Shown: positions 5,300 through 58,479, counted from the stretch's first letter. The stretch: 64,000 bases of DNA from Candidatus Binatia bacterium (GCA_965231775.1 OZ246888.1:338853-402852); one strand, 5' to 3'. A program made the numbers and translations. The notes: a model not told the origin generated them from the sequence alone.

Positions 5300-5967
5300 T
5301 GTTAAAGTTTATGGCCGCTGTTCGGCGTCTGGATCATATTTCGCACGATGAGCTGGTCCACGCCTGGGAACACATTCACGCCCCGCATGTCGTTTCGCTG
5401 GTCAAGCCGGAACGCTATCGCATCACCTTCTTCGACCCGCCCTCGGACAGCGCCGATGCGGACAGCCGTCCACCGGACGGTATGGCCGAGCTGTGGTTCC
5501 GGGATAGAGAGCATTTTGAGACCACGATCGGACGGCAGGCCCCGCCCAATATAGACGCCGACAAATTCAGTACCTATGCCGCCATCCAACCGGGCTGCAA
5601 TCTGTTTGTGACCGAGCATCTCAACGTTGATGGGCCGACGACCCGCGACACCACCAAGCTCACCTTCTTTATCAAGAGACGCCAGGGAATCGAGCGCGCC
5701 CACCTGGACGACTACTGGCTGAAGGTCCATGTGCCGAACGTTGTTGCGGCCATCAATAATACGCCGGACGCGGTACGCTATTCCGTGGACTTGGTGGATC
5801 AGGCCGAGTCTGAGCGAGAGCGCACCTACGACGGCGTGGCCCAAATCTGCATCGACCATGCCAACGCCACCTTCGCCGACATCCAGGGCTATGAGCCGGA
5901 CGGTTTCGGCGAGCTGGTCGAACCCATGCTGGTGGTTAGTGGGCACGAGGTGCGTATTGTGGGCTGA
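5300..5967 (+). CDS. tandem EthD-like / dimeric alpha+beta-barrel protein
   Basis: Two internal repeats, each with the EthD-like pattern (HxxxH..P, W..VHVP). RBS aaggaggg precedes the ATG at 5300. Its last ~58 codons have a divergent second copy at 10859-11032. Confidence 0.6.
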
Positions 5968-5970
5968 CTG

Positions 5971-6243
5971 GTGTCGGGAACGACAATGAACGGGAACGAA
6001 CGCTCTATACCCCGAGATTTTGATCGAGATACGGCACCAGACCTGTCTAGGGACGGCTGGCCGGAGAAGTTCGCCAAGGCGACTGTCCGCCGTGGCCGGC
6101 TACCGGTCGCCAAACCGAAAGTGTCAACGACCATCCGTCTGTCACAGGACGTGATCGATCACTTCAAGGCCGGCGGTCGCGGCTGGCAGACGCGAATCGA
6201 TAAGGCGCTCCGCGAGTGGATCTGGAAACATAACGCCGCGTGA
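5971..6243 (+). CDS. BrnA-family ribbon-helix-helix protein (orphan)
   Basis: C-terminus KVSTTIRLSQDVIDHFKAGGRGWQTRIDKALREWI matches the BrnA/COG3514 signature (TIRLDxDVLDWFKAQGKGYQTRINAVLRAY). Starts 4 nt after the EthD stop. No BrnT-like ORF is adjacent. Confidence 0.6.
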   Translation: MSGTTMNGNERSIPRDFDRDTAPDLSRDGWPEKFAKATVRRGRLPVAKPKVSTTIRLSQDVIDHFKAGGRGWQTRIDKALREWIWKHNAA

Positions 6244-6268
6244 TGATGGATCGGCTGCGTGACCTTAC

Positions 6269-6519
6269 TCAGCTTCCATCCGCGAGAAGTGCCTTGAGCT
6301 TGGCTTCCGTCAAGCCGTTCGTGGATGCCTCCTCGCCCAAGGCATCCATCGTCATTGTCAGGCGTTCCCAGGCAGCGCCACGAAGTTGCTCATAGTGTTC
6401 ACCGACATCATCACGCCGACCACCCTGCCTTTCTTGGTCACACGCACGGGGGCGCGCTGCACAGCGTCAAGCAAATAGCCGAAGCGATTCTTGGCATCCC
6501 TGGCGGTAATTTCTTTCAT
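6269..6519 (-). pseudogene. Phd/YefM-family antitoxin, frameshifted (1-nt deletion near 6392)
   Basis: Manual translation: MKEITARDAKNRFGYLLDAVQRAPVRVTKKGRVVGVMMS, then a frame break. The next frame continues EHYEQLRGAAWERLTMTMDALGEEASTNGLTEAKLKALLADGS. Rejoined, this gives a typical ~83-aa Phd/YefM antitoxin. No cognate toxin gene is present. Confidence 0.55.
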
Positions 6520-6559
6520 GGGGGATGTAATAGCTACTATGCTCTCTTCTCACAATGAG

Positions 6560-6632
6560 AGATCACATCTTATAACTACAAATTATATGTATAATAAGGC
6601 ACGCCGTTATTTTCTTAAAGGCATAGAGTGAA
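6560..6632 (+). promoter_or_regulatory. AT-rich putative promoter region upstream of the STAND gene
   Basis: AT-rich stretch ...tacaaattatatgtataataaggcacg... containing a TATAAT-like hexamer, in an otherwise GC-rich context and immediately 5' of the 6633 ATG. Confidence 0.35.
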
Positions 6633-9600
6633 ATGTTTGACATCTCCAAGGATCAACTGCGCCAACTCAACGATGTGGATTTACGAGAATTGGTCGCTCG
6701 TTTGTGTGAAGCGGAATTGAGTCGCGCAGGGGCACCAGTCAGCGCGGTGAGATGGGGTGGTGCTCAGACCGCTCCCGATGGGGGCTTAGATGTTGAAATC
6801 CTAGTCAAAGACCAAGAGTTTGCAGGCGACTTCGTACCCCGTACTTGGACCGGAATTCAGGTCAAGAAATCAAACATGCCGGCTAGCAAGATCGCCGAGG
6901 AAATGTCTCCCAAAGGAGTTCTGAGACCCATCTTCCCGGAGCTTGCGAGACATAACGGCTGCTACATCATCGTTAGCCTGGCCGATGATCCCGCTGGCAC
7001 CAATCTTGGTGATCGAGAGAAGGCAATGCAGACGCAGATCGAGCCGGTCAAGGACCAGGGAGACCTGCGAGTAGAGTTTTACGGATGCGGCCGTCTTGCC
7101 GACCGGCTGCGTCAGCATCCTGGTGTCCAGCTTTGGGTGTGCGAAAAGCTGGGCTTGCCGTTGAGTGGATGGAGGCCGTTCGGGAGGTGGAGTACGACAC
7201 CGCCGGGCGTTGAGGACGACCTGATCTGCGAAGCGGGTGTTACTATTGCGCTTCCGGGAGGGAGGGACAAGTTAGATATCGCGCAAGGAATAGATGGAAT
7301 CCGAGAACTTATAAGAAGCTCAGGCAAAACGGTGCGGATTGTCGGTCTATCCGGGGTTGGTAAATCCCGAATCGTCCAAGCTTTGTTTGAAGAAACCGTC
7401 GGAGACAGACCCCTCGACAGACACCGTGCGATATACGCGGACCTTGGTGAGGTACCGGACCCGCCACCCCGAACGGTTCTTGGGCGTCTTGCTGCTGAAA
7501 AACATCTAGCAATCATAGTATTGGACAACTGTTCGTCCGATGTACACAACCGAATTGCTAGCCAAGCTGCTTCCTCGTCAAACCTTCGCCTTGTCACGGT
7601 CGAATACGACATCCGAGAGGACAAGCCCGAAGAGACCAGGGTTGTTCGGATTGATGCCGAAGGCCCCGAAATAGCTGAAACGCTAATTAAAAGACGGCAC
7701 CCTGACCTCGGTCCAGTCAATGCACAACGGGTCGCCGAGTTCTCGGGCGGCAACGCCCGGGTCGCGCTCGCGCTTGCAGACACGGCAAGTGAGGAGAAAG
7801 AAAGCCTTTTAAGTTTCTCCCCTGCACAACTCTTCGACAGGCTATTCTATCAGCGAGGTGCACCCGACGCAGACCTGCTCAAGGCTGCTGAGGTTTTGGC
7901 GCTCGTATACTCGTTTTCCATTAGCGCCAATGAAGGCGGTGTGGATGAACTCGCCACGCTTGCCGGATTGCTGGATCAGAATCGACGTGCACTACACAGG
8001 GAGGCACAAACGCTTGTTGAGCGACAGCTCGCGCAGAAGCGAGGAGCTTGGCGTGCAGTTTTGCCACATGCACTGTCCAATCGGCTTGCTAAAAGGGCAC
8101 TCGAAAATATCCCCGTTGACGACATCCTCAATACTTTTCAAGGGCTATCAAATCCTCGCCTGCTGAAGTCGTTCGGAAAACGTCTTGGATATCTCCATGA
8201 TCACGAGATCTCACAGGATATCGTCAAATCCTGGCTATCACCCGGTGGACTATTGCACGACCTGTATCTGCTTGATGAAGATGGTATCCAACTCCTTCTG
8301 AATGTGGCTCCGGTAGCTCCAGAAGATGTCTTGAACGCCATTGAGGCTCAGGATACAGGCGGAACAACTGAAATATCCTTCTCTAGGGGAAGTCTACGCC
8401 TCAGGGGAAACTCGCGCCTCTCTACATTTGCGGATCTCTTAGTCGCGATCGCATATGACCCCGATCTCTTCGAAAGATGCGTCGTCCGCCTAGCCAAGTT
8501 TGCTCTGATGGAAACAGAAGAAGAGGGGGAAAATGTCAGTGGTATACGGGGCCGTCTCTATGGTCTGTTTTCATTGTATTTTTCGGAGACCGAGGCTGGC
8601 CCAGACGCTCGTGAGCATGTTGCTCGCCGTTTTTTGTCAAGTGGAGACCGAAACGAACAGAGGCTTGGCTTGGGGATGCTCAGGGCAGCGTTGCGGGGTA
8701 CAAATCAGTTCTTGGCTGGGACTGTCGAATTCGGTGCTCGACTAAGGTTCTACGGTTACCATCCCCAGACTCACGAAGAACACGACCAGTGGTTTATACG
8801 GTTTGTTGCGCTAGCGTGGAAGATAGCCACTGGCGAAGATGTATATCTTTCGACTCAAGTGCGCGCTCTACTCGCGAGCGAGTTACGGGGGCTCTGGGAC
8901 CATTCGGGACTGCGCGAAGCGCTAGTGGATTTAGCGATGGCCCTCAATGAGCAGCGGCCTTGGCTGGAAGGTTGGCGGGCTGTCCGACAAATCAAGCACT
9001 ACGACTATCGCAGGACCCGTGGTACCAAATTATTAGATAAGCTCGATGAGATGCCAGAGTCAGAGCGACCGTCCGATAAAGAAACCAAAACCTATGTTCT
9101 CAGCGCACGATTATTAGATAAGCTGGATGAGACGCTGAAACCAAGAGGACTTGCCGATGAGGTCAGAACCTATGTTCTCAGAGCAGATCACGAACTGTCT
9201 ACCTTGGATGAAGAGTTCGACTTCGATGACAATCAGAGCTGGCAGGAGGCAAACAAACGCGCGGCTGCAAGGGCCTACGACCTTGGTACAGTCGTGGCAG
9301 ATGAGTCGAACGTCCTGAATGAGCTATCGGAGGAGCTCTTCACGGCTCAGAACGGCTATCTCTTTGAATTTGGGAAGGGTGTAGCGTCGAAGTGTAATGA
9401 CCTACAAGGTCTTTGGGAGCGTCTTATTGAGTGGCTCGAACTCGCTGGCGATCAGGCGTGCCATGGTGGTGTCTTGAATGGCGTCCTTAAGGTTACTCAC
9501 GAGCGCGATGAACCGTTAGCACAGAAAATCCTTGATGAAGCGGTACAAAAACGCATTCTCAGAAAATTCATTGTCAGCCTCCAGGTATCGGTTCCATTAG

Positions 9601-10559
9601 GTGATACAGGCGTTTACCGTCTTCACAGGTCACTCGACTTCGAAGATACGCCACTGCGACAATTCGGCAACCTTGCTTGGCATCGTCCGCTCAACACGCT
9701 AAGCGAAGCAGATATTCGGGACCTGATGCTAAAGATGTTGGGCAGGCCTGAAGGCGCTGAAGTCGTCCTTGATGGCTTGAGTATGCGACTGCACGTGTTG
9801 AAAAATGACAACCTCACCTTGGGCCCTGACCTCAAAGGAGCAGGCATACTTGCCTCCGCCGCACTGCTACGCCATAGAGCGGATTATTACGATGGTGGCT
9901 CAATCGATCTTCACCTGTCGGAAGTCTTGAAGTCCTGCATGGACGAAGTCGAGTTTCCCACAGAGACCGGTGAAGTCTTCGATGCGTTTCTCACCAGATT
10001 GAGAGCGTCGTATGGCTACGTGAGTGGTATAGAGAAGGCAGTAGCGGTTCTGGCGGAGAAGACAACATTTCGATTCCTCGATGGCATCTTCCTTGATGCT
10101 GCGCTTAAGGACTATCGCCACACGATTTTTCGGGTAGGGCGTGACGAGGAAAACCCGCTTTCTGGTGTCTCCGTTACGACACTATTAGATTGGTGTGGGC
10201 AAGACGACTTTCAGGAACGGCTGATCATGCTCTCGGAAGCGATTTATCCGTTTGAAAAAGAGCCAGAGGGTGATGGCATCGTATTGTCAGAACAAGCATA
10301 TGCCATTATAGACGCAACACAGGACCCCTCTACAGTTCTGAGAAATTTCTGCTCTTCTGCGAGGCCTAATGGATGGTCGGGGAGTTTGGCGAACATCATC
10401 GCGAAGCGAGGCCAGGCTTTTATGACATTGTTAGAGCATGGCCAATCCGATATCCGCGATGCGGCCGCAGCACAAATCGCTCAAATCAATCAGTGGGAAG
10501 AACAGCAGCGAAGCTACGAGCGGGCCGGGGATGAACAACGTGAGCAGCGTTTTGAGTAA
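6633..10559 (+). CDS. Avs/AVAST-like antiviral STAND NTPase with N-terminal Mrr-like PD-(D/E)xK nuclease domain
   Basis: N-terminus (aa 15-125) matches the Mrr_cat pattern: LRELVARLCEAEL...PDGGLDVEI...GIQVKK...CYIIVSLA (D...QxK). Walker A GLSGVGKS is at aa 238-245 (nt 7344-7367). Walker B is LAIIVLDNC. About 850 aa of helical-repeat C-terminus follow. Compositionally lower GC than the flanks. Confidence 0.65.
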   Translation: MFDISKDQLRQLNDVDLRELVARLCEAELSRAGAPVSAVRWGGAQTAPDGGLDVEILVKDQEFAGDFVPRTWTGIQVKKSNMPASKIAEEMSPKGVLRPIFPELARHNGCYIIVSLADDPAGTNLGDREKAMQTQIEPVKDQGDLRVEFYGCGRLADRLRQHPGVQLWVCEKLGLPLSGWRPFGRWSTTPPGVEDDLICEAGVTIALPGGRDKLDIAQGIDGIRELIRSSGKTVRIVGLSGVGKSRIVQALFEETVGDRPLDRHRAIYADLGEVPDPPPRTVLGRLAAEKHLAIIVLDNCSSDVHNRIASQAASSSNLRLVTVEYDIREDKPEETRVVRIDAEGPEIAETLIKRRHPDLGPVNAQRVAEFSGGNARVALALADTASEEKESLLSFSPAQLFDRLFYQRGAPDADLLKAAEVLALVYSFSISANEGGVDELATLAGLLDQNRRALHREAQTLVERQLAQKRGAWRAVLPHALSNRLAKRALENIPVDDILNTFQGLSNPRLLKSFGKRLGYLHDHEISQDIVKSWLSPGGLLHDLYLLDEDGIQLLLNVAPVAPEDVLNAIEAQDTGGTTEISFSRGSLRLRGNSRLSTFADLLVAIAYDPDLFERCVVRLAKFALMETEEEGENVSGIRGRLYGLFSLYFSETEAGPDAREHVARRFLSSGDRNEQRLGLGMLRAALRGTNQFLAGTVEFGARLRFYGYHPQTHEEHDQWFIRFVALAWKIATGEDVYLSTQVRALLASELRGLWDHSGLREALVDLAMALNEQRPWLEGWRAVRQIKHYDYRRTRGTKLLDKLDEMPESERPSDKETKTYVLSARLLDKLDETLKPRGLADEVRTYVLRADHELSTLDEEFDFDDNQSWQEANKRAAARAYDLGTVVADESNVLNELSEELFTAQNGYLFEFGKGVASKCNDLQGLWERLIEWLELAGDQACHGGVLNGVLKVTHERDEPLAQKILDEAVQKRILRKFIVSLQVSVPLGDTGVYRLHRSLDFEDTPLRQFGNLAWHRPLNTLSEADIRDLMLKMLGRPEGAEVVLDGLSMRLHVLKNDNLTLGPDLKGAGILASAALLRHRADYYDGGSIDLHLSEVLKSCMDEVEFPTETGEVFDAFLTRLRASYGYVSGIEKAVAVLAEKTTFRFLDGIFLDAALKDYRHTIFRVGRDEENPLSGVSVTTLLDWCGQDDFQERLIMLSEAIYPFEKEPEGDGIVLSEQAYAIIDATQDPSTVLRNFCSSARPNGWSGSLANIIAKRGQAFMTLLEHGQSDIRDAAAAQIAQINQWEEQQRSYERAGDEQREQRFE
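9030..9191 (+). repeat. in-frame tandem duplication (2 x 81 nt) inside the STAND gene C-terminal region
   Basis: ttattagataagctcgatgag...aaaacctatgttctcagcgcacga is directly followed by ttattagataagctggatgag...agaacctatgttctcagagcagat. The peptide repeat is LLDKLDEMPESERPSDKETKTYVLSA / LLDKLDETLKPRGLADEVRTYVLRA. Confidence 0.8.
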
Positions 10560-10608
10560 CTGTACGGAGCGCAAATATCCGAACGGTTGAGGGAAAGGTA
10601 GGCTTATC

Positions 10609-10869
10609 ATGAGTGGATACGATAAACCCCTCACCCCCAGACAGATCGCGACCACGAAGGACGAGAGCATCGATTTCAGCGATATTCCTGAGTTGGATGA
10701 GACCTTCTGGCAGCAGGCGGAACTCGTCGAACCCGACCTCACCGACCAGATTACCCTGCGTGTCAAACGGTCCGTGTTGGCCTATTTCAAGGCTCCGGGA
10801 AAGGGCTACCAGACGCGGATCAACCAGGTGCTCGAAAGCTACGTGCGGTCGCAACGCGGACCTGGTTGA
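10609..10869 (+). CDS. BrnA-family ribbon-helix-helix protein (orphan)
   Basis: ELDETFWQQAELVEP...ITLRVKRSVLAYFKAPGKGYQTRINQVLESYV is the BrnA/COG3514 signature. It starts 49 nt after the STAND gene stop. Its last 11 nt overlap the start of the EthD-like fragment. Confidence 0.6.
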   Translation: MSGYDKPLTPRQIATTKDESIDFSDIPELDETFWQQAELVEPDLTDQITLRVKRSVLAYFKAPGKGYQTRINQVLESYVRSQRGPG

Positions 10870-11032
10870 TCTGACCGATTCTGAGCGTGCTTACGGTGGC
10901 GTCGTACAAATCTGTATCGATCATCCCAACGCCACATTCGCGGATATTCAGGGCTATGAGCCAGACGGTTTTGGTGAGTCGGTCAAACCCATGCTGGTAA
11001 TCAGTAGGCATGAGGTTCATATTGTGAGTTGA
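10859..11032 (+). pseudogene. 3'-terminal fragment (~57 codons) of an EthD-like gene, divergent copy of 5788-5967
   Basis: DLVDLTDSERAYGGVVQICIDHPNATFADIQGYEPDGFGESVKPMLVISRHEVHIVS* aligns with DLVDQAESERERTYDGVAQICIDHANATFADIQGYEPDGFGELVEPMLVVSGHEVRIVG* of the intact gene. No start codon or N-terminal half. Third codon positions are AT-shifted relative to the intact copy. Confidence 0.75.
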
Positions 11033-11068
11033 TATAGGGGAGGCGGGGAAACCCATAGGGAAATCTAC

Positions 11069-12274
11069 ATGAGGCAGAGCATAGGCAAACATTCTGGCGT
11101 ATTGCTCTGTCTTCTCCTCTCCCATCTTCTGCTTGCTCCTTCGCTCTCTTCCGCGCAGGACACAGACGACCAGACGCGCGGGTTGCAACTCGACGGGTGG
11201 CAGGGAACGCGGCCAGCGCCACAACAAACTCCCCGGCCCTCTTCCCCGCAGCGCTATGCCCCCGCCCGGCCCCAAGTCCTGGAACTGCCGTCGGTCTCGC
11301 AACCGTCTATGCAGACCCTTCCGCGTCAACAGGACATTCCGCCTACGCATCTCCAAAAACGGACTCCAAGACCCACCCAACTCCTCACTGTCACTGTGAC
11401 AGATCAGAACGGTCAATATATCAACGGTCTGACCCCCGAGGATTTTATCATCTACGAAGGGGGCCAGTCTCAGCTCATTACCTATTTTAATACTGGCCAA
11501 CAGGAGCCGGTCAGTCTGGGCCTCCTGGTTGACATGAGTGAAAGCATGCACGGCAAACGGCGCCGGGCCGTCCTTGCCCTGCGGAGTTTTGCTCAAGCGA
11601 TTAAACCCGGCGATGAGGTTTTTCTTCTAGGGTTTAATCACCAGCTCACGATCTTACAGGACTTTACCGACAGTCCCAGCCTGTTGACGCAGGCTACGGC
11701 CGGTCTCCAGCCGAGCGGCGAGACGGCCCTGTACGACGCCGTGTTGGGCGGTCTGCAACGCATCCAACGCGGCCAGCGTCAGAAGAAAGCCCTCATCCTC
11801 ATGAGTGATGGCCTGGATACCTCAAGCACGGCCTCACGTGAAGACGCTTTTCGGGCGGCGCGGGAAGCCAACCTTCTCATATACACCATCGGTATCGGTA
11901 ATCTCAGCCAAGGTGTCCGAAGCCAGCGGATGCCCATGTGGGGGATGGGCGGGATGGGACGAATGGGCGGGATGGGTGGTCCCTTCATGCCCAGTCGGGG
12001 CCGGCCCAATCTTGGCTCGGTGGATGTTGACCTGCTGCAATCGCTGAGTGACACGACCGGTGCCCAACATTTTTTTCTGAATACGAAAGATATTCTGGGG
12101 AGCCATACAGTACTCGAACAAGCAACCCAGACCATTGCCCACGAACTTCGCCAGCAATACAGCATCGGCTACCTCTCGCCCCTCAAGGGAGATGTCTACC
12201 GCGACGTTCAAGTCGAGACGCGACATCCACAACATCAAGGACTCATCGTGCGGACGCATAAGGGGACGGGGTAG
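11069..12274 (+). CDS. secreted von Willebrand factor A (VWA) domain protein
   Basis: Signal peptide (LLCLLLSHLLLAPSLSSA) and a Pro/Gln-rich linker. VWA/MIDAS-like region DMSESM...SDGLDTSS. Gly-Met repeat MGGMGRMGGMGG. Confidence 0.65.
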   Translation: MRQSIGKHSGVLLCLLLSHLLLAPSLSSAQDTDDQTRGLQLDGWQGTRPAPQQTPRPSSPQRYAPARPQVLELPSVSQPSMQTLPRQQDIPPTHLQKRTPRPTQLLTVTVTDQNGQYINGLTPEDFIIYEGGQSQLITYFNTGQQEPVSLGLLVDMSESMHGKRRRAVLALRSFAQAIKPGDEVFLLGFNHQLTILQDFTDSPSLLTQATAGLQPSGETALYDAVLGGLQRIQRGQRQKKALILMSDGLDTSSTASREDAFRAAREANLLIYTIGIGNLSQGVRSQRMPMWGMGGMGRMGGMGGPFMPSRGRPNLGSVDVDLLQSLSDTTGAQHFFLNTKDILGSHTVLEQATQTIAHELRQQYSIGYLSPLKGDVYRDVQVETRHPQHQGLIVRTHKGTG

Positions 12275-12355
12275 CCCGCGTTTCCCCTTGCCTCCGCCGC
12301 CCGTCTCTTATATTTCTGGTTTTTTCACAGCAGTTTCACAGCAGGAGGACAGACT

Positions 12356-13705
12356 ATGCATTTCATGTGGTTCACGGAACGTGCGTATCACTACGACCCG
12401 GAAGAACATCCGGAGCAATACCGCGACCTCGAAAACGAGATTATTCGCAAACGCAGCTTTTTCGGGACGCCAAACCGCTATTTTGATCGCCAGCACGGCG
12501 CGCGGCTGCTCAATCAGTATCTCGACGAGAAGATCTATACCGACCAGGAGCTGATGAACTTTGACGGCATTATGCTCAACGAGCACCATGCCAACCCCTT
12601 CTGCCTGGGCGCGGTCATGGATGTCGAAGCCTCGGTCCTGGCCAAGGCGACCAGCCGGGTCAGAATGGCGCTGCTCGGCAACCCGGTTCCGACCGTATCG
12701 AACGCGCTCCGGCTGGCCGAAGAGCTGGCCATGATCGACCTGATCTCCAACGGCCGCCTGATCTCCGGCTGGGTGCGTGGCGCGGGCAGCGAACAGCTCG
12801 CCAATAATGCCAACCCGGCCTTTAATCGCGAATATTTTGAAGAGGGCATCGACTTTATCATCAAGTCGTGGACCAAACCCGGCCCGTTTCGGTATGAGGG
12901 CAAGCACTTCCACTTCCGGCACGTCAATCCCTGGGTGCTGCCCGTCCAAGAGCCGCATCCGCCCTTCTGGATTCCCGGTCTCATCAGCCCCGAAACGGTC
13001 GCGTGGTGCGCCAAGAATCGCTATCCCTACGTGGCCCTGGCCACCCGACTCGAACCGACCCTGGAGCTGTGGGATTTCTACAATACAGCCGCAGCCCGTG
13101 AAGGCTATCAGGCCGGGCCGGAGAATTTTGGCTATCTGCAACCCGTCATGGTCGCGGATACGCAGGAACGCGCGGAAGAAATGGGCAAGCGCATTCTGTA
13201 CGGTGGCGCCTTTGCGCATTTCGCCCGGCCCGAATGGATGTTCCCGCCGGGCTATAACTCGAAAGCGGCCACCCGCCGGCTGGCCCGGACGAACTTCGGC
13301 GTGAATGCCTCTGCCGGGCCGCTGTACGGTGAGGGCGGGGAAACGACGGTCGAAGAGATCGAGGCCGTCAAAAAGACTATTTACGATAGCTATCCCGGTG
13401 TCCTCAAAGATATGGTCATGATCGCGGGTACGCCGGACAACGTGATTCCGAAGCTCAAGAAAATCCAGGATATCCTGCGTCCGGGCATCTTCTCCTTCTG
13501 GCTGGACGGCCCGGTGCCGGCCAAGGACCGGATGCGCTGTCTGGAACTGCTCAACCGCGACGTCATTCCGGTCATGCGCGAGCACGGCAAGACGCTGGGG
13601 CTGGTTGACCCGTTTGAGCAAAAACCCGGCTCCCGGCCGCTGGCCAACGGCCGGCCCGAGCCCGTCAGCGATGCCGAGGCTTTGGCCGAGTTGATGGCCG
13701 CCTAA
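12356..13705 (+). CDS. LLM-class flavin-dependent oxidoreductase (luciferase-like monooxygenase)
   Basis: Luciferase-like TIM-barrel pattern (NEHHANPF, LISNGRL..GW). RBS aggagg precedes the ATG. Paralog of 57139-58479. Confidence 0.8.
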   Translation: MHFMWFTERAYHYDPEEHPEQYRDLENEIIRKRSFFGTPNRYFDRQHGARLLNQYLDEKIYTDQELMNFDGIMLNEHHANPFCLGAVMDVEASVLAKATSRVRMALLGNPVPTVSNALRLAEELAMIDLISNGRLISGWVRGAGSEQLANNANPAFNREYFEEGIDFIIKSWTKPGPFRYEGKHFHFRHVNPWVLPVQEPHPPFWIPGLISPETVAWCAKNRYPYVALATRLEPTLELWDFYNTAAAREGYQAGPENFGYLQPVMVADTQERAEEMGKRILYGGAFAHFARPEWMFPPGYNSKAATRRLARTNFGVNASAGPLYGEGGETTVEEIEAVKKTIYDSYPGVLKDMVMIAGTPDNVIPKLKKIQDILRPGIFSFWLDGPVPAKDRMRCLELLNRDVIPVMREHGKTLGLVDPFEQKPGSRPLANGRPEPVSDAEALAELMAA

Positions 13706-13718
13706 GGTTCATCTTGTT

Positions 13719-13746
13719 GACCGGCTCCTGCAAGCGGGAGCCGGTC
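13719..13746 (+). terminator. GC-rich hairpin downstream of the LLM gene (terminator-like)
   Basis: gaccggctcc-tgcaagc-gggagccggtc forms a 10-bp perfect stem. No U-tract follows. Confidence 0.35.
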
Positions 13747-13798
13747 AGTCTATCTCCCAACCCCAACTGCATCCTTCCGCGATGAGGGGAGAACAGCA

Positions 13799-16076: not shown

Positions 16077-16199
16077 GGCCGTATCCTCATGAACGATCAA
16101 CGCAGGCGCGGACCATACCTAGCCTACTGCGTTCAGGGCCGCCTTGTCGAGCGTCTGGCAACGCTTGCTCTGAACACCGGACCGTTTTATGCTGAGCGC

Positions 16200-49991: not shown

Positions 49992-50146
49992 GGCCCCCTC
50001 CTCTGACGTTGTGTCCCCCCTACCACAAGTCCCTATAGAAATCACTGTTTCGCCTGCTTTCTTGAAAAGAGAGAGAGCTTTCCGTACTCTGGGCCGCAAG
50101 CGTTTGTATGTAATCCTCGATCCGATCTGGAACGGAGAGCAACAGA

Positions 50147-51304: not shown

Positions 51305-51308
51305 GGAA

Positions 51309-51345
51309 ACCCTCACCCTGGCCCTCTCCCAGAGGGAGAAGGGAA
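51309..51345. repeat. partial copy of the GC-rich inverted-repeat element found complete at 57037-57132
   Basis: ccctcaccctggccctctcccagagggagaaggg contains the hairpin ccctctccc-aga-gggagaaggg. The first ~37 nt are near-identical to 57040-57076. The second hairpin and the closing outer stem are lacking. Confidence 0.6.
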
Positions 51346-51352
51346 ATGCACT

Positions 51353-51514
51353 TTACGAACTCGGCTGCATGCCAAGGTCCTTTAACGGCGTGCGGTCCAC
51401 GATCGGCAGGCGGCGTGTCCTCGGCGTGAGTTTGACCGAGCCCGGTACGCGGCTGAACTGATCGACCAGGTCGATTTCCTTGGCGTATGTTGCGGGGCTG
51501 GTGAAGTTGCTCAT
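51353..51514 (-). pseudogene. 3' fragment (~50 codons) of an LLM monooxygenase; copy of the 3' end of 57139-58479
   Basis: Minus-strand translation ...YAKEIDLVDQFSRVPGSVKLTPRTRRLPIVDRTPLKDLGMQPSS* aligns with YAKEIELVDQFTRVPGSVKLTPGTRRLPIVDRTPLKDLGLQPKA*. High nucleotide identity over ~150 nt. No N-terminal body. Confidence 0.7.
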
Positions 51515-51573
51515 TGGGTCATCTTAGTATTACGTCTGATGGGTTTATCAATGATTACCCGTCCTCTAATACT

Positions 51574-52206
51574 CTACTTTGAGCGCTCCCATATCCTGCC
51601 GAAATACTCTAAGGTTCTATCGCCGAAGAATAAGAGTGTGATGACAAGGATACCAAAACAGGCACTTGCCCATAACGGCGCGCAAAGCCACTCTGCCCTC
51701 ACAAGGACAAGAAGCGTCCCGAAGACCAAAAACAAAGCGATCGCGGTGAATCCGCTACGCTGGCATCGATTGAGCCAGAAAAGCTTCTCTGTGTTCGGCT
51801 GAACCGCTTGACGACATTCCCACAGTATAGCCGTGATTTCTTCCCGCAGTGCATCTTCATGTGATAGCTCCTGGAAATCATACACGGTTTCCAGCGCCAC
51901 CCGATATGGTTTCCTGACACTCAATACTTTGATCGCATAGAACAACCCTTTTCCTAGGAAAAGGACGCTGGCTAGAAAAGCAACCAGAAGAAGCCACCTG
52001 CTATCCCCGGCGATCTTTACGAGGGATTCAATTCTCGGAACGATGAGGCTAGCAAGGACGCCGAGTATTGCTAGCATCGCCGTGGCGCGGGTCTCAGCAG
52101 CTTTACCACGTTCTACCTCTTGTACCGCACGCTGTTTGACGAATGTGAGTGACTGCTCCAAAACTTTGACATCGTTTGACGTGATACAGTTCCGTATATC
52201 AAGCAT
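51574..52206 (-). CDS. 4-TM membrane protein (last gene of the ATP-grasp operon)
   Basis: Four hydrophobic segments with a ~60-aa soluble insert. Its ATG overlaps the ATP-grasp stop (ATGCTTGA). Low-GC sequence. Confidence 0.5.
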   Translation of the reverse strand: MLDIRNCITSNDVKVLEQSLTFVKQRAVQEVERGKAAETRATAMLAILGVLASLIVPRIESLVKIAGDSRWLLLVAFLASVLFLGKGLFYAIKVLSVRKPYRVALETVYDFQELSHEDALREEITAILWECRQAVQPNTEKLFWLNRCQRSGFTAIALFLVFGTLLVLVRAEWLCAPLWASACFGILVITLLFFGDRTLEYFGRIWERSK

Positions 52207-53182
52207 GAATCTCTTCCCGCACATTGAGACAGTCAATAATCGCGTCTCTGATCGGATACCCAACCTTTCGCTCTATCCACGCCCACTGCCCATTCGGATT
52301 CAATTCGAGAAAGTAGAATTCATTGTCAGTGCCCTTCACGAGGTCAATTGCTGAGTACTTTAAGCCAAAGTGACGCGTAATAGCGCGACACCTACACGCT
52401 ATCGGGTTCGGCAACTGGATCGCCTCGTGCTTCAGGTCAAACGCATTAACATCCCACAAACGCCAGTCAACTTCAGTTTCAGAGTAATCCTGCGAATGGA
52501 TCGCAGTGGCAAAAACCTGATCCCCGACAACCGTCACCCTGATATCAAACAGCTTTGGAATTTCTCGCTGGTAGATCATCGGTACTGGCGCATACTTATC
52601 GAAGTCGCTCAGAAATTGCTGATCGACTCTTTTCGTAGGTGCTACGGTTACGATATTCTCCCCCCGAGTAAATCCGTGCTTCACGGCCTTACAGACAACG
52701 CGTCCACCATGCATTCTATGAAAGGCACGCACCCGTGCCCCTGTCATGGTTACGCAAGTCTCAGGGATCAAGTAACCGAGGCCACGGGCTACTGAAAGCT
52801 GCTCTATTTTGTTGGAAGCTAACCACAGATCGCGCGGATGATTTAGCCATATATCCCGATCAATCAGCCGCCAAAGGCTCCTGAGAGCTTCCTTCAACTC
52901 TCGATGTACGAAGGGGCGGTCAGCGCATGCTACAGTGTCTGGAACACTTGGCGAAATCGGCTGCCGGAAATAAACTGCTGAAACTGACGAATTCGAGATT
53001 GTCTGGCCGTCCGCCTTGGTGAGACGAAAATCAGACGAAGATGCGCTGAGCTCAACCTCCAGATCAAAACGGATACCAAAATCCTCAGTATTCAGTCGCG
53101 TAAAGGGAATGCCACGTTCTTTGAGACGTAAGATAAGGTAATCGCACGCTAGGTCCGTTTTATTGGTGACAATTAGTAACAT
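52199..53182 (-). CDS. MvdD-family ATP-grasp ribosomal peptide maturase (graspetide ligase)
   Basis: MLLIVTNKTDLACDYLILRLKERGIPFTRLNTEDF, DIRVTVVGDQVFATAIHSQDY..VDWR and YSAIDLVKGTDNEFYFLELNPNGQWAWIE align along their length with microviridin ligase MvdD (recollected). Confidence 0.7.
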   Translation of the reverse strand: MLLIVTNKTDLACDYLILRLKERGIPFTRLNTEDFGIRFDLEVELSASSSDFRLTKADGQTISNSSVSAVYFRQPISPSVPDTVACADRPFVHRELKEALRSLWRLIDRDIWLNHPRDLWLASNKIEQLSVARGLGYLIPETCVTMTGARVRAFHRMHGGRVVCKAVKHGFTRGENIVTVAPTKRVDQQFLSDFDKYAPVPMIYQREIPKLFDIRVTVVGDQVFATAIHSQDYSETEVDWRLWDVNAFDLKHEAIQLPNPIACRCRAITRHFGLKYSAIDLVKGTDNEFYFLELNPNGQWAWIERKVGYPIRDAIIDCLNVREEIHA

Positions 53183-53412
53183 CCCTCATCCTCGGGATCA
53201 GGATCATCGTCACCGGGGGCTGCGAAAGTCTTAGACTCAGTCCTAATAGAATCCTCTTTAGAAACCAGGGGAGACCTCGTTCCATCCCGGGTTACGATAT
53301 TGATCTGTTGGTCTTCATCATAGTGAACGACTACATCTTCCAACTCGTACTGTTTTGCAGTCACAAGAAGGTACGCACGTTTTCCAGTCACTAGACCCCT
53401 CCTATCCTCCAT
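53173..53412 (-). CDS. small acidic protein; candidate graspetide precursor peptide
   Basis: 79 aa. Its stop overlaps the ATP-grasp start by 10 nt. The C-terminal region TRDGTRSPLVSKEDSIRTESKTFAAPGDDDPDPEDEGCY is rich in Thr/Ser/Lys donors and Asp/Glu acceptors. Confidence 0.4.
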   Translation of the reverse strand: MEDRRGLVTGKRAYLLVTAKQYELEDVVVHYDEDQQINIVTRDGTRSPLVSKEDSIRTESKTFAAPGDDDPDPEDEGCY

Positions 53413-53496
53413 GGACGTTATCTTCTGGCATGTCCCGAATGGCTCCCTTAAACGGACTCCAATAATAGCCGAAGGGGAGACTTGAAGAATATTCCT

Positions 53497-56334
53497 TCAG
53501 CGACGTTCCGACAAGTTAAGCATCAGTAACTCCCGAAGAACCTCGTCATCGCTCACATCCGCGTTCCAGCCGTAAGCTGCCGCCACGGCGGCATCAAGGG
53601 CAGTGTGTGCATCAGTCAACCATTGCGGGCGGGTGTTGTAGAGATTGGTCAGGGTGCGTTTCTTGAGTGCTTTCGCTACGTCCTCGTTGCGGGGAACCGG
53701 GCGTTTGGGATAGCCGGGGACCGGCTCGTCTACCCACTCCACCCATTCCGGCGGGTTGAGCCAATTATCACGCAACTCGACCTGCCGCCGGGCGGCCTCA
53801 GCAATGGCAATGGCGCGGGGGTCCTTGGCGTAATCGGATGCGGGGATATCGGGCGACAGTCCATCTGGAAACGGGAACGTCTCAAATGTTGTGGTCGGCG
53901 TGTAGCGCGGGCGGTCTTCCAAGGTGGTGCCGAGCCGGAGCGACCATATTTCATGAAACCGACTATGCAAAATGCCGAAGGTCGTGTCATCGTCGCGGGC
54001 GACGACAACCAACAGATTCTCGGGGTAGATTGCCGGATCGCGCCAGACAAACAATCGGTATTTTGCTGTCATCGACGTTGCGATGTAGCGGGAAACGGTT
54101 TTAATTTTCCTGAACATGGCCTGTCCAGAACGGTCATGCCGCCACCAGTTTTTCCGCAAATCAGTGCGCCGATTGAGGTCCCTTTCGGGCTTTACATGCT
54201 TTTGAACATAGGCGAACGGCGCTTCGTAAAGTGCCGCGTCGGCTTCGCTCATTTCGTGCCCGAAGTCGATGACCCATTTGTCGGCTGGCCGCCGGGTAAC
54301 ATCCATACCGTTGATCCACGGCTTGAGAACATCCGCGTTGGGTCTGCCGTTCGGGTTCGTGGGCAGACAGAGCCATTCACGAGCCAGATCGCCCGGAATG
54401 TCGAAACTTCCCCTTTTGTATCCTCCCCGGAAAGCCGTCTGTCTATTTCGTTCTTGCTCTCGGGCTTCCGTAAGATCGACAATTCCGCCCGTCAGGTCAG
54501 CGTTGATTTGCGGAGCGGCGTTCCCATTGAGGCGAACGGGCAGCTTGGCCGCTTTGTCGGTAAAGCAAACCAGAGACACGCGGACAGCGGCGCCATCAAT
54601 CACCCATGGCTCATCCGACCAAGCATCGTAAATCGTCGAATGCCCAACAATCCGGCTCAGCACGGTGCGATTCTTTCCGTCGCGGATCGAATTCGTCGCG
54701 ACCAAACCAGCGCGGGCGAGCTTGCGATCGGCTACCAGACGAGTAGCCTTGTCGAACCAGTAGCAAACGAGATCGGCGAAGGCTGGTACCAATCCCTTTC
54801 GGGATCGATAAAGGTTTTCCGTATAGGCGTCGCCAAGCACTTGGCGCATCCTCTTGTTCCCCAAAAACGGTGGATTGCCGATCACGACATCGGCCTTGGG
54901 CCAGTCGGATTCACTACCCTCTGGCGTCAGGATGGCGTCCCGGCATTCGATGGTGTCAAGCGGTTTGAGAATCGGGTCGCGAGATTCGTTGAATCCGTTG
55001 CGCCGCATCCATTGGATTTCGCCAATCCACACCGACACACGGGCTAACTCCGCAGCGTAGGCGTTAATCTCGATGCCCTTGACGTTGGCCGGGCCGATAG
55101 CAGGGAATTCTCTCTCTAAGCCCAGCGCTTCGGCCTCCAACTGTACACGATGCTCCAAGTCCTTGAGGGCATGCAGCGCCAGATAAAGGAAGTTGCCCGA
55201 GCCGCAGGCCGGGTCAAGCACGGTGAAGCTCCGCAGCCGGTGGAGAAACGCGCTCAACAGGCGCTCGGCTTCGGCCTGTCGGCGCGTGCGCGTGGCCGTG
55301 GATTTGGCGGTCTCCGCTTTTTCCAGGACAGCAGCGATCTCGGCCTTGGCCGTCTCCCACTCGGTCAACCAGGGGCGAATGATTACCGGCGCGACAATCA
55401 GCATGATCTTGTCGCGGTCGGTGTAATGCGCGCCCAGTTGCGAGCGCTTGTCAGGGTCAAGCCCGCGCTCGAACAGCGTACCGAGAATTGAGGGATCAAT
55501 CTCCGACCAGTCGAGGGCCGCAGCCGCGAGTACGGTATCAATGTCGGTTTTCTCCAGTGGTAGGGTCGTATCGTCGTTAAACAACCCACCGTTGAACCAC
55601 GCCACCGGCTCAAAGCCGACCAGGCCGCCTCTGGCCATCGCCCCGAACAGGGCACGGGCCATCGTGGCGAACTCTTCAGGCCGCTTGTGGGCCTCCTCCA
55701 GCATCCGCGTGAACATGTTGTTCGGCAGCAGGCCCACGTCTTCGGCGAACATGCAGAACACAAGCCGGTTCACGAAATGCGCTACAACGTGACTCTCGTG
55801 GCGGCGTTCCCGTAATGCCTGCGCCAGGGTGGCAAAAGTGGTGGCTGCGCGTTCGGTGACGGTTTGGCGCGTTTCGCCGGGCCGGAGCCGTTCGGGCTCG
55901 GCCATCGCCCATTTTAAGATATTGCGCGTGGCTGCGTCCGCGAGATCGTCCAGCGTAAACTCGTGGGTCTCGCTGACGCTGTTGGTCCAGTTGGTGCGGA
56001 TACGGAACCGCGCCATGTCCGAGACGATCAACAGTGGCGGATTCTCCAGTGCCAGGGCGTACTGCCGTAACTGATTGAAGGCCGCGTCCAGATTCTTGTG
56101 TTTGCCCTTGTACTCCCAGGCAAAGTGATATCGCTTCCACACATCGGCCCAGCCCTTGCCGCCGGTGTCTTTACGCGCGCCACGCTCGAAGCAGTAATGG
56201 TCGCCGGTGGGGTCGGCTTGGGCCGGCGTGGATTCACCGAGCAGACGACACAGGTCAATGAAATGCTCTTGCGACGCCGAACGCTCTTTTAGCTCCGAGG
56301 CGCGCCACTTGGTAATGAATTCGCTTGGCGTCAT
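53497..56334 (-). CDS. MmeI-like type IIL restriction-modification enzyme (single-chain endonuclease + gamma-class N6-adenine methyltransferase + TRD)
   Basis: The N-terminus aligns with the MmeI nuclease domain (D...EYK in DTGGKGWADVWKRYHFAWEYKGK, then PPLLIVSDMARFRIRTNW). Motif I is VLDPACGSGNFL. Motif IV is VVIGNPPF. The 945-aa length matches the family. Confidence 0.7.
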   Translation of the reverse strand: MTPSEFITKWRASELKERSASQEHFIDLCRLLGESTPAQADPTGDHYCFERGARKDTGGKGWADVWKRYHFAWEYKGKHKNLDAAFNQLRQYALALENPPLLIVSDMARFRIRTNWTNSVSETHEFTLDDLADAATRNILKWAMAEPERLRPGETRQTVTERAATTFATLAQALRERRHESHVVAHFVNRLVFCMFAEDVGLLPNNMFTRMLEEAHKRPEEFATMARALFGAMARGGLVGFEPVAWFNGGLFNDDTTLPLEKTDIDTVLAAAALDWSEIDPSILGTLFERGLDPDKRSQLGAHYTDRDKIMLIVAPVIIRPWLTEWETAKAEIAAVLEKAETAKSTATRTRRQAEAERLLSAFLHRLRSFTVLDPACGSGNFLYLALHALKDLEHRVQLEAEALGLEREFPAIGPANVKGIEINAYAAELARVSVWIGEIQWMRRNGFNESRDPILKPLDTIECRDAILTPEGSESDWPKADVVIGNPPFLGNKRMRQVLGDAYTENLYRSRKGLVPAFADLVCYWFDKATRLVADRKLARAGLVATNSIRDGKNRTVLSRIVGHSTIYDAWSDEPWVIDGAAVRVSLVCFTDKAAKLPVRLNGNAAPQINADLTGGIVDLTEAREQERNRQTAFRGGYKRGSFDIPGDLAREWLCLPTNPNGRPNADVLKPWINGMDVTRRPADKWVIDFGHEMSEADAALYEAPFAYVQKHVKPERDLNRRTDLRKNWWRHDRSGQAMFRKIKTVSRYIATSMTAKYRLFVWRDPAIYPENLLVVVARDDDTTFGILHSRFHEIWSLRLGTTLEDRPRYTPTTTFETFPFPDGLSPDIPASDYAKDPRAIAIAEAARRQVELRDNWLNPPEWVEWVDEPVPGYPKRPVPRNEDVAKALKKRTLTNLYNTRPQWLTDAHTALDAAVAAAYGWNADVSDDEVLRELLMLNLSERR

Positions 56335-56455
56335 GGCGTTATTATTTTGGAGTGCCTGTGCATGGATGACGTTCCAAGACGATCCAAAATCGTTTCATCT
56401 TTGGAAAAGGGGGAAGAGATGTTGGGGAAGTTAGATTGAGGGGGCTCCGTGTAGT

Positions 56456-56797
56456 TTAGCCACCAAGAATATCATGCAATAATTCTTGGAGAGTCTTTTG
56501 ATCCTGCTCCCCTAAGCGGCCCAGCTTCTTGAGAATAAGCGTTTTTTCGATAGTGGCCAGTACTGGTTTGATGGTAGACGGTTTCAAAAGGCCGGCTGCT
56601 TTCCAGCCCACAATATGGGCCTCCCCCCGTGTGGATGTTGGTCTGGCCTGACTGGTGATTGCAATAATGATGAGGTCAAGGCGACCTCGGTTATAAGCAG
56701 ACGAACTCACTACCGCTGCCGGGCGCTGTTTACTTGTGGTCTGGTCCGTAAAAGGAAAGGGCGCGAGGACGATGTCTCCAAACTCATAGCTGGTCAT
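56456..56797 (-). CDS. MazF/PemK-family toxin
   Basis: MTSYEFGDIVLAPFPFTD...KQRPAAVVSS...DLIIIAITS is the PemK/MazF signature. Start chosen at 56797. Confidence 0.65.
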   Translation of the reverse strand: MTSYEFGDIVLAPFPFTDQTTSKQRPAAVVSSSAYNRGRLDLIIIAITSQARPTSTRGEAHIVGWKAAGLLKPSTIKPVLATIEKTLILKKLGRLGEQDQKTLQELLHDILGG

Positions 56798-56999
56798 AGT
56801 CGGCATCGTCCGGATTATCCCAGACGCGAGCAAAGGCCGACTCGGACAACTTGGTCGCTGCCTGGCTTAGGCGACGGTCGGCGTCACGCTGACAGAGAAA
56901 ATCGACAAAGTCTTCAACCTCGGAGACTTTAGCCGGTGGCAGGAGCCGGATTTTTTCGATCAGCTCCCGGACATGTGTATCATCAGTAGCCATTCTCAC
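56784..56999 (-). CDS. putative antitoxin of the MazF-like toxin
   Basis: 71-aa acidic protein immediately upstream of the toxin and overlapping it. LPPAKVSEVEDFVDFL is the antitoxin-like motif. Confidence 0.5.
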   Translation of the reverse strand: MRMATDDTHVRELIEKIRLLPPAKVSEVEDFVDFLCQRDADRRLSQAATKLSESAFARVWDNPDDADYDQL

Positions 57000-57036
57000 C
57001 TCTGTATTGTGTCGATAGGCTTTTTAATAATACCTC

Positions 57037-57132
57037 AAGGAACCCTCACCCCGGCCCTCTCCCAGCGGGAGAGGGGATAAAAGGTAGGGGCAACCCCCTG
57101 TGGTTGCCCGGTCCCCCGTCGGTGAGGGAAAA
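57037..57132. repeat. structured GC-rich element with nested inverted repeats, 3' of the LLM gene (terminator or REP-like)
   Basis: The outer stem cctcacc...ggtgagg encloses two hairpins: ccctctccc-agc-gggagaggg and gggcaacc-ccctgt-ggttgccc. A partial copy lies at 51309-51345. Confidence 0.6.
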
Positions 57133-57138
57133 CCCAAC

Positions 57139-58479
57139 CTACGCCTTCGGTTGCAGGCCAAGGTCCTTCAAGGGTGTGCGGTCCACGATCGGCAGGCGGC
57201 GTGTCCCCGGCGTGAGTTTGACCGAACCCGGTACGCGGGTGAACTGATCGACCAGCTCGATTTCCTTGGCGTATTCTTTGACCGCAGGAATGACCTCCTG
57301 GCCCATCAGGCGGATGCTGTTCAGCCGGTCTTCGTTGCCGACTGGCCCTTGAACCTGGAAGCAGGCGAACGTCCCTGGCCGCAGCACGCGGATCATGGTC
57401 TTGATCTTTTCAATCACGGTCTTGGGCGAGCCGACGATCATCAGGTAGTCGTCCTGGGCGCGCTTATACGACTTCTCCAGCTTACGACGGACCTCACCCA
57501 GGTCCGTACTCCTCTTTTTCCGGCCCTGCTGGGCCTCCTTGAGCCGGTCCGAATCAACCCCGACCCAGCCGCCGCTCGGACGCTGGGCCAGCAGGCGAAT
57601 GGCGTTTTTGGAATTATAGCCCGGCGGTAAGGTGTGTTCCGGTCTGGAGAAGGAACTCGCTCCACCGCCCCACACAAACCCTTTGCCCAGCTCCTGAGCC
57701 TTTTCATCCGTGTCCGCGCAGAACACCCCAATCAAATAGGCAAAATTTTCCGTGCCGGCCTGATAGCCGTTTTCGGCCGCGGTATCGGCGTAATAGTCCA
57801 GCAGGTCGCAGGTTGGACTCAGGGCGGTCACCAGGGCCAGATAGGGATAGTTATGCTGGGCCGCCCAGTGCACCGTCTCGGGGCTCAACACGCCGGGAAT
57901 CCACATTTGCGGATGCGGCTTCTGGTAGGGTAGCGCCCACGGATTGACATGGCGGTAGTGAAAATGCTTGCCCTCGTAGCGCCACGGGCCGGGCTTGGTC
58001 CACGCCTGGATAATGAAGTCGTGGGCTTCGTTGAACATCTCGCGGTTATAGGCCGGGTTGGCATTATTGAAGAACTGCTCGCTGCCCGCCCCGCGCACCC
58101 AGCCGGTGACGAGACGCCCGCGTGAGATCAGATCGATCTCGGCCAGCTCTTCGGCCATGCGCAGCGGATGCTTCAGCACCGGCAACGGATTGCCGATCAG
58201 GACGATCTTGGCCTTGCTGGTAATACGCGCCAGGATGGCGGCTTCGACATTCATGACGCTGCCCATACAGAAGGGGTTGCCGTGGTGCTCGTTCAGCATG
58301 AGCGCATCAAAACCGACCTCTTCGGCATAGCAATATTCATCTAGAAAAAAGTTATAATCGTCGGCCGCCTTTTCGCGGTCAAAGCGCGCGTTGGGCAGGG
58401 CAAAGAAACCCCGGTGTTCAAGCACTTCGTCTTCGTCGACCCAGCGATACGGTCGCTCAGTAAAATAGCCAAATAGCAT
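57139..58479 (-). CDS. LLM-class flavin-dependent oxidoreductase
   Basis: Paralog of 12356-13705 (NEHHGNPFC, LISRGRLVTGWVRGAGSEQ). Confidence 0.8.
   Translation of the reverse strand: MLFGYFTERPYRWVDEDEVLEHRGFFALPNARFDREKAADDYNFFLDEYCYAEEVGFDALMLNEHHGNPFCMGSVMNVEAAILARITSKAKIVLIGNPLPVLKHPLRMAEELAEIDLISRGRLVTGWVRGAGSEQFFNNANPAYNREMFNEAHDFIIQAWTKPGPWRYEGKHFHYRHVNPWALPYQKPHPQMWIPGVLSPETVHWAAQHNYPYLALVTALSPTCDLLDYYADTAAENGYQAGTENFAYLIGVFCADTDEKAQELGKGFVWGGGASSFSRPEHTLPPGYNSKNAIRLLAQRPSGGWVGVDSDRLKEAQQGRKKRSTDLGEVRRKLEKSYKRAQDDYLMIVGSPKTVIEKIKTMIRVLRPGTFACFQVQGPVGNEDRLNSIRLMGQEVIPAVKEYAKEIELVDQFTRVPGSVKLTPGTRRLPIVDRTPLKDLGLQPKA

Follow-up and report, generated by a model that had tools for sequence, protein, structure and literature searches.

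How does a set of defence-type genes come to lie between an intact chromosomal gene and a displaced copy of that gene's own last codons, with neither an integrase nor a transposase beside it? The question is raised twice by a window of 64,000 nt (the whole stretch of DNA analysed here) from Candidatus Binatia bacterium (GCA_965231775.1 OZ246888.1:338853-402852), in which island 1 (5968-10854) follows a gene for an EthD-domain protein (site 1) and island 2 (51489-57113) adjoins LLM2, a gene for a luciferase-like monooxygenase (site 2), the G+C content dropping in both islands from about 0.61 to 0.50-0.56. Comparison with related genomes leads us to favour, as the probable explanation, the arrival of donor DNA that was anchored by homology in the flanking gene and closed by one illegitimate join, that is, homology-facilitated illegitimate recombination (HFIR) or a close equivalent. 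The cargo of these sites, which consists of toxin-antitoxin (TA) pairs and of genes for restriction and other kinds of defence, is exchanged with no recombinase encoded by the element itself.

Self-comparison of the window (12-nt seed, minimum length 40) returned only two direct-repeat families in the 64 kb. At site 1, segment 5818-5967 was paired with 10883-11032 (150 nt, 80% identity), and BLAST extended this repeat to 5784-5967 and 10855-11032 (78%, with one 6-nt gap). The first copy, copy A, consists of the last ~56 codons of the intact EthD gene (5296-5967, plus strand; Pfam EthD; start codon uncertain) and ends at the stop codon of that gene, 5967, while the second is a displaced 3' fragment of ~56 codons plus stop (EthD'; 10855-11032, plus strand), contiguous with the ancestral downstream gene, which encodes a VWA-domain protein. 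At site 2, the paired segments are 51328-51488 and 57114-57274 (161 nt, 86%), with 93% identity by BLAST over 128 coding nt. Since LLM2 (57139-58479; Pfam Bac_luciferase) is on the minus strand with its stop at 57139, the intact copy, whose last 45 codons (57139-57274) form one half of the repeat, is found on the right of island 2; on the left stands the displaced fragment (LLM'; 51353-51488, minus strand, 45 codons plus stop). The LLM repeat unit includes a hairpin resembling repetitive extragenic palindromic (REP) elements after each copy, at 51310-51342, where it adjoins LLM' and is part of the native empty-site spacer, and at 57043-57075, downstream of the intact gene; these are the sole two matches in the window, none being expected by chance. 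The preliminary description of this DNA, according to which copies of the EthD and LLM 3' ends bound the two islands and defence-type cargo lies between an intact gene and the displaced last 50-60 or so codons of that gene, was therefore confirmed, the exact figures being ~56 codons for EthD and 45 for LLM2, and the cargo being made up of defence and TA genes.

The LLM2 protein is 96-98% identical to its orthologues in 16 Binatia metagenome-assembled chromosomes or contigs, which provided 16 orthologous loci for site 2; for site 1, nine loci were taken from EthD homologues and a metagenome scan. Site 2 is empty in seven of the 16 loci, the convergent LLM2 and amidohydrolase genes lying 64-108 nt apart, and holds other cargo in the remaining nine. 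Two of these (L004 and L014) carry alone the same DUF2281/PemK TA pair as the window, four (L006, L009, L011 and L043) carry the TA pair and/or the MmeI gene together with other genes, L002 has a VapC-type PIN toxin, L001 a small open reading frame (ORF) of unknown function, and L022 (12323-16197) the TA pair followed by an IS982-like transposase and two DndB-like proteins, one of them with a ParB-HTH; HEPN genes are also found among the cargo of the nine occupied loci. The genome of L002 is the closest overall, with 97-99% identity across the left flank, yet its cargo is wholly different. Site 1 is likewise empty in L168, where EthD is followed directly by VWA and then LLM1 (the paralogue of LLM2), and in L084, where it is followed directly by LLM1. 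In four other loci it is occupied by mutually unrelated cargoes, namely a SIR2/NB-ARC/TPR STAND protein (L081, 10350-13527, minus strand), three TA modules (L082), more than 10 kb of other DNA (L083) and an unrelated amidohydrolase (L163). The comparative search for empty sites that had been suggested for this DNA thus succeeded at both positions, and both sites are variable hotspots between conserved genes. Their flanks are nearest-neighbour mosaics, most strongly on the amidohydrolase side, and the LLM tail alleles at these loci are mosaic too, as might be expected from frequent homologous recombination. As a separate observation, the 9.8-kb insert that follows EthD in L083 (6345-16225) has a strong positive GC skew, few long ORFs and a 117-nt repeat in three copies (10450, 12409 and 13779), and the motif GAAATCGTGAAATAT occurs after both copies of the repeat that flanks it.

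Which of the two tails belongs to the ancestral locus could be read from the order of genes in these relatives. In the window, 51205-51488, which contains LLM', the hairpin and amidohydrolase sequence, aligns collinearly with L003, an empty-site locus (85.7% identity over 293 nt); the occupied locus L011 matches, in the same order, intact LLM2, the spacer, the hairpin, the TA pair and MmeI (92% identity over 808 nt, 83% thereafter). At site 1, L081 has the order EthD'-VWA-LLM1 as well, with 92% identity to the window; its orthologous EthD' (13528-13643) lies upstream of VWA behind different cargo, and the homology of the window with L081 and L082 ends exactly at the EthD stop codon, 5967. Judged by this collinearity, the displaced tails are the native gene ends. 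The same comparisons bear on the possibility that a metagenome assembler had joined occupied and empty haplotypes of one site. The source is evidently metagenome-assembled, and both types of haplotype exist in the population, but the junction of the cargo end with LLM' joins non-homologous sequences, and graph mis-joining at a shared repeat would not yield such a junction; moreover, EthD' is also present in the independent assembly L081, and analogous scars occur in several independent assemblies. We consider such an artefact highly improbable.

It had been proposed that a wider scan might reveal further triplets of gene, insert and 3' gene fragment. Self-comparison of 100 loci (1.84 Mb) did reveal the same scar, at three unrelated genes in relatives: a molybdopterin dehydrogenase gene followed by a PIN toxin-antitoxin pair and a 92-nt displaced tail (L067), a secretin gene followed by a DUF4258/HTH pair and a 133-nt displaced tail (L014), and an HTH antitoxin gene followed by BrnTA and a 174-nt displaced tail (L082). 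The smallest cargo is one TA pair of ~650 nt. For the L067 site, eight orthologous loci are empty and show a single tail contiguous with the flank that is found after the displaced copy in L067. A HicB-like antitoxin and a 74-aa ORF form a second small insertion there (70-811), adjoining the PIN TA insertion; this second insertion stands in place of 46 nt of the empty-site sequence, and nothing was duplicated. One further candidate, L080 17753-18981, was rejected as a tail scar, being a tandem 5' duplication of an HTH-type gene (66-nt repeat, 94%) with no cargo. Other direct repeats were returned by self-comparison in L025, L054, L075, L013, L003 and L157.

The differences between intact and displaced tails are not spread as in decaying DNA. 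Counted at codon positions 1, 2 and 3, respectively, they number 3, 2 and 8 for LLM2 and 7, 5 and 20 for EthD in the window, 0, 1 and 9 in L067, 0, 0 and 4 in L014, and 6, 4 and 13 in L082, so that third positions account for 54 of the 82 differences over the five pairs (p=1.8e-9) and for 28 of 45 when only the window pairs are taken (p=6.8e-5). In L067, the two tails differ at 10 nt, of which 9 are third positions, yet both encode an identical run of 31 residues. The orthologous displaced EthD' copies of the window and L081, taken as a control, differ by 3, 3 and 4, as expected of neutral pseudogene fragments. LLM' has 81-94% identity to relatives, within the allelic range of the orthologues, and is hence not decayed. 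The third-position bias indicates that the copies diverged as working alleles in separate lineages, and not as a decayed local duplicate; on this evidence two functional alleles meet in each scar, of which one came in with the cargo or beside it and the other was resident. The simplest alternative, that each tail had been duplicated in place and cargo then inserted between the copies, or the spare copy left to decay, as independent accidents at the two genes, accounts for the bare presence of direct repeats. It is refuted by the codon-position test, which requires that both copies evolved as working ends, and is also opposed by the position of LLM' within the orthologous range and by the recurrence of the pattern at other genes; we consider its probability negligible. 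The outcome that would have spoken most directly against a common origin, two cases explicable as independent segmental duplications with no further instances, was therefore not what we found.

If the copies are alleles, the next question is whether they were brought together by a site-specific recombinase. The 5' boundary of the EthD duplication lies at codon -56 in the window, -38 in L081 and -12 in L083, where the repeat also extends for 31 nt or more beyond the stop; in the case of L081, whether the shorter EthD' reflects a deletion that truncated the SIR2/NB-ARC gene is not decided by the domain layout. At site 2, the boundary is at codon -45 in the window and lies beyond the LLM stop, by 55 nt in L001 and by 26 nt in L014, the duplication being absent elsewhere. 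As the repeats of L001 and L014 start beyond the stop, their duplicated segment is spacer and hairpin only, and in none of the nine occupied relatives is the LLM coding tail present twice. The left cargo edge at site 2 either coincides with the stop codon or follows the hairpin, and no motif is common to the seven boundaries examined, at five unrelated genes. The cargo end adjoining LLM' (51489-51573, minus strand) is non-coding: its BLAST homology to L170 passes the stop of the membrane-protein gene and reaches 51531, the rest of this cargo tail loosely resembles L170 by eye, and L170 goes on with unrelated sequence where the window switches to LLM'. One side is thus collinear with a donor-type arrangement, and the other is an abrupt join without extended homology.

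Neither in the islands nor among the ~50 main ORFs of the window, compared with Pfam at E<=1e-5 (4 ORFs match no family), was an integrase, resolvase or transposase domain detected, and these ORFs gave no match to Phage_integrase, Resolvase, Recombinase or DDE, which bears out the earlier statement that the islands are free of integrases and transposases. There are no tRNA genes and no Rfam matches in the window. The cargo ORFs scanned in relatives contain no recombinase, and their sole mobility gene is the IS982-like transposase of L022, so that, with this one exception, the hotspots are devoid of mobility-associated proteins. The larger ORFs of the >10 kb cargo of L083 are without a recombinase domain (its last 3.5 kb, with short ORFs only, was not scanned), and no integrase-bearing element was seen at either site within the stretches examined of the 16 site-2 and nine site-1 loci.

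These data can be set against the idea of site-specific integration, in which an element would carry an attP with a replacement tail, its integrase having since been lost, as in a remnant resembling a cis-mobilisable element (CIME), or acting in trans. The order of intact gene, cargo and displaced, diverged tail is just what such elements produce, the two copies are allelic, and empty sites exist in relatives. In L083, furthermore, a 67-nt, 94% identical repeat spans the EthD stop and flanks the 9.8 kb, and ~10 nt after the EthD stop are shared by the window and both L083 copies. What argues against it is the lack of any recombinase domain in the window or in the scanned ORFs of the relatives' islands, the existence of three boundaries at EthD and three at the LLM2 site, the absence of a shared core among seven boundaries at five unrelated genes, the finding that most occupied relatives carry the same TA/MmeI cargo without tail duplication, and cargo as small as one TA pair of ~650 nt. 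We therefore regard this explanation as improbable and the att-site or integrase reading as unsupported overall, although individual events such as that in L083 may have arisen in this way. The suggestion that protein-coding 3' ends serve here as att sites finds no support in boundaries that vary, share no motif and are mostly not duplicated in occupied relatives, with no recombinase among the ORFs scanned. Of the related suggestion that one shared mechanism made both islands, the part invoking HFIR or replacement by incoming DNA fits best, and the part invoking a recombinase encoded elsewhere is unsupported.

Any explanation has to cover what the comparison shows: both sites are hotspots and are empty in some relatives, the gene order is collinear with that of relatives, the two copies of each tail are allelic, the junctions vary, and recombinases are lacking in the examined sequences. 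We propose that, in the usual case, DNA of a related strain that carries cargo would recombine by homology in both flanking genes and leave no scar. A scar would arise when only one end finds homology: a donor strand would pair within or upstream of EthD or LLM2 and bring its own complete gene tail together with the cargo, the far end of which would be joined illegitimately to the recipient inside the 3' end of the gene. The gene would be kept intact by the donor tail, and the recipient tail would be stranded past the cargo, still attached to its native neighbours. Selection would retain only those joins that leave both flanking genes whole, and scars would accordingly be concentrated in tails and spacers. 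The recombination steps and the direction of transfer are what we infer from the comparison of sequences.

Several points weigh against this proposal. The case for it is built on comparison throughout, and HFIR is reported to be rarer than clean homologous recombination by orders of magnitude (work cited in PMC5361080); duplicated junctions are nevertheless common, being present at site 2 in ~4 of 10 occupied genomes and at site 1 in 3 of 5. The tail scars, seven in number, are all at 3' ends and none at a 5' end, which selection explains only partly. No recombination breakpoint can be placed in the LLM2 of the window, as its differences from L002 are evenly spread, and donor and recipient are thus not assignable. 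The recombinase search covered a 64-kb window of a genome of ~5 Mb, the rest of which may encode a recombinase, and HFIR would be expected to leave short microhomology at the illegitimate join and to depend on RecA and DNA uptake. Finally, the LLM2 copies resemble reciprocal chimeras relative to the L002 allele, a feature that a single crossover inside the repeat would explain better than simple HFIR.

Such a crossover is the essence of a Campbell-type model, in which a non-replicating circle or circularised fragment, made of cargo and a gene tail of 60-180 nt, undergoes one reciprocal homologous crossover in the tail; it would duplicate exactly the homology arm and yield copies that are reciprocal chimeras. 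Being RecA-dependent and needing no recombinase of its own, it is a variant of the HFIR proposal. The reciprocal mosaic of LLM2 is in line with it, the first 3 sites that differ being L002-like in the displaced copy and most later ones in the intact copy, as are the duplicated unit, which is sharp-ended on both sides, and the fact that recombination between the repeats would regenerate the circle. The mosaic, however, comprises only ~10 sites in a population with mosaic alleles, and is hence not significant. EthD' is not chimeric, its I and H being derived and confined to displaced copies; at the DH-P-NATF position, P is common among intact homologues (P0001-P0004) and the A of the window is derived, again with no chimerism. 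No circular form is visible in the sequence data used, and a crossover would be inefficient between arms of only 130-170 nt that are 80-93% identical. We regard the model as possible, though rather unlikely.

Next to the intact tail there is, in most cases, a TA operon that has the orientation of the host gene. One might therefore imagine a dedicated route in Binatia for small promoterless TA or defence cassettes that use a short gene tail as homology arm; such cassettes might alternate between a circular form and the chromosome by using the tail duplication, or an unrecognised trans-acting factor might place them at 3' ends. This is a speculation to which we attach little probability. If true, it would account for the frequency of the scars, the constancy of the 3' end, and the TA operon reading out of the host gene.

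Both islands have a composite content. Island 1 begins with an orphan BrnA antitoxin whose partner BrnT is missing (5971-6243, plus strand; Pfam BrnA_antitoxin, 1.6e-19) and which is 91% identical to L082 2545-2813, where BrnT precedes BrnA. It is followed by a broken Phd/YefM-type antitoxin remnant without PIN toxin (6268-6559, minus strand), consisting of two short ORFs (6269-6355 and 6358-6519) and 88% identical to the Phd antitoxin region of L082 (1767-2059). The main cargo is a 1308-aa P-loop protein of PD-Lambda-4_A type (6633-10559, plus strand; PADLOC PDLC03991, E=0, full length) with a weak Pfam AAA_16 match, and a second orphan BrnA antitoxin (10609-10869, plus strand; Pfam BrnA_antitoxin, 7e-13) ends the island, its stop codon overlapping the start of EthD'. 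The TA parts of the island are thus orphan or eroded (two BrnA without BrnT, a split Phd without PIN) and shuffled relative to L082. On its left, the intact EthD gene has a 95% identical homologue, P0001; to the right, EthD' is followed by the VWA-domain gene (11069-12274, plus strand; Pfam VWA_2), the native right flank of site 1, and by LLM1 (12356-13705, plus strand; Pfam Bac_luciferase), which borders the site in relatives without VWA (L082 and L084).

Island 2 comprises the DUF2281/PemK pair, an MmeI-family enzyme and a three-gene module. Its native flank is the amidohydrolase gene convergent with LLM2 (50147-51304, plus strand; Pfam Amidohydro_2). The TA pair (56456-56999, minus strand) is made up of a DUF2281 antitoxin (56784-56999) and a PemK/MazF toxin (56456-56833), and is found at the same site in L004, L011, L014 and L022. 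The type IIG restriction-modification enzyme of the MmeI family (53497-56334, minus strand; five Pfam MmeI domains; PADLOC REase_MTase_IIG, 3.7e-300) has orthologues with 73-85% identity at the same site in L006, L009, L011 and L043. The three-gene module, or module D (51574-53412, minus strand), encodes a 79-aa ORF, an MvdC/D-like ATP-grasp protein and a PycTM-like membrane protein; it is absent from all 16 orthologous site-2 loci, and in L169 it is linked to the C-terminus of MmeI, following the MmeI gene as it does in the window. The same three genes (with a 72-79 aa ORF) also occur in L170. The ATP-grasp gene scores below the NCBIfam cut-offs for peptide maturases and has more than 1000 homologues across phyla, and the three genes might represent either a graspetide cluster or a defence module not yet described.

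The REP-like, G+C-rich hairpin of the site-2 spacer (CCCTCACCCYGGCCCTCTCCC NNN GGGAGARGG) occurs at dispersed positions in Binatia genomes; it was also seen at L014 8192-8227 and 8400-8438 and at L043 108-137, and in L022 it lies on both sides of the cargo. LLM1 and LLM2 are inverted paralogues (plus and minus strand, respectively), with ~75% nucleotide identity along a stretch of more than 700 nt; between them lie 44 kb of catabolic genes, and each of the two is the neighbour of one hotspot. A further LLM gene lies at 14772-16100. Loci L045-L080, returned by the LLM2 scan, were rejected as LLM1 orthologues since they represent a third LLM paralogue.

Taken together, these loci illustrate how the chromosome of a little-known uncultured phylum can gain and lose defence and TA genes without mobile-element machinery. 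Intact and displaced tails that differ mostly at silent positions are diagnostic of two lineages' alleles joined, and not of local duplication, and the scars could serve to count primary, one-sided acquisitions against clean allelic replacement in population genomic data. For the annotation of islands, it follows that a duplicated gene tail alone is not evidence of an att site.

The final anatomy is a familiar one. Elements such as e14 and phage 21 at icd, or ICESt1 and ICESt3 at fda, integrate at the 3' end of a gene and supply a replacement tail; each depends on a cognate integrase and crosses over at a single core that is fixed for its target, and CIME are their recombinase-less derivatives. 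All of them share with the present islands a gene completed by a foreign tail, the cargo, and a displaced, diverged tail as direct repeat. Unlike in those systems, no integrase was found here in the sequences searched, the boundaries vary between genomes, and there is no common core. HFIR, as known from transformation of Acinetobacter, Pseudomonas and Streptococcus, resembles our scars in having one homologous anchor and one illegitimate join, variable junctions and no sequence specificity. In experiments it usually deletes recipient DNA next to the anchor; here, in contrast, homology extends downstream of the join, with the result that recipient DNA would be duplicated and not lost.

HFIR has also been proposed for displaced 3' ends in type VI secretion system (T6SS) and Rhs loci (PMC5361080). 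In the C-terminal displacement described for these loci (Jackson et al. 2009; Kirchberger et al. 2017, PMC5361080), as proposed for the window, a module enters via the conserved upstream part of a gene and displaces the old 3' end, which then lies downstream as an orphan fragment, with no integrase involved. The displaced tips of Rhs and T6SS genes are variable toxin domains with immunity genes, and their exchange diversifies the gene, whereas here the ends are those of ordinary metabolic genes, have the same function, and are separated by cargo unrelated to the gene. Small chromosomal TA islets (PMC13617665) and the ccdO157 region between folA and apaH (PMC3184786) are similar to the present sites in that tiny TA insertions without mobility genes lie between core genes, REP hairpins are found in the variable spacer, and TA genes are orphan or eroded. 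According to PMC13617665, TA-only islets are thought to spread by recombination in their flanks; duplication of the tail of a flanking gene is not mentioned in the passages searched of these two papers.

A close parallel at the level of the locus is that of the hotspots that lack integrases, many of which were described together with an excess of recombination in the flanking core genes (Oliveira et al. 2017, PMC5635113), and of the core defence hotspots (Johnson et al. 2023, PMC10250203). As here, a fixed flanking pair encloses variable defence and TA content, empty sites occur, integrases and transposases are absent, and the flanks are mosaic. Those studies deal with clean replacement via both flanks, while in Binatia, an uncultured phylum and thus a different setting, a sizeable fraction of events left a duplicated tail of 60-180 nt with allelic divergence. 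Overall, the feature is real and recurrent and of a kind that is probably known, each of its ingredients, hotspots without integrases, HFIR and C-terminal displacement, having been described already in one of these systems.

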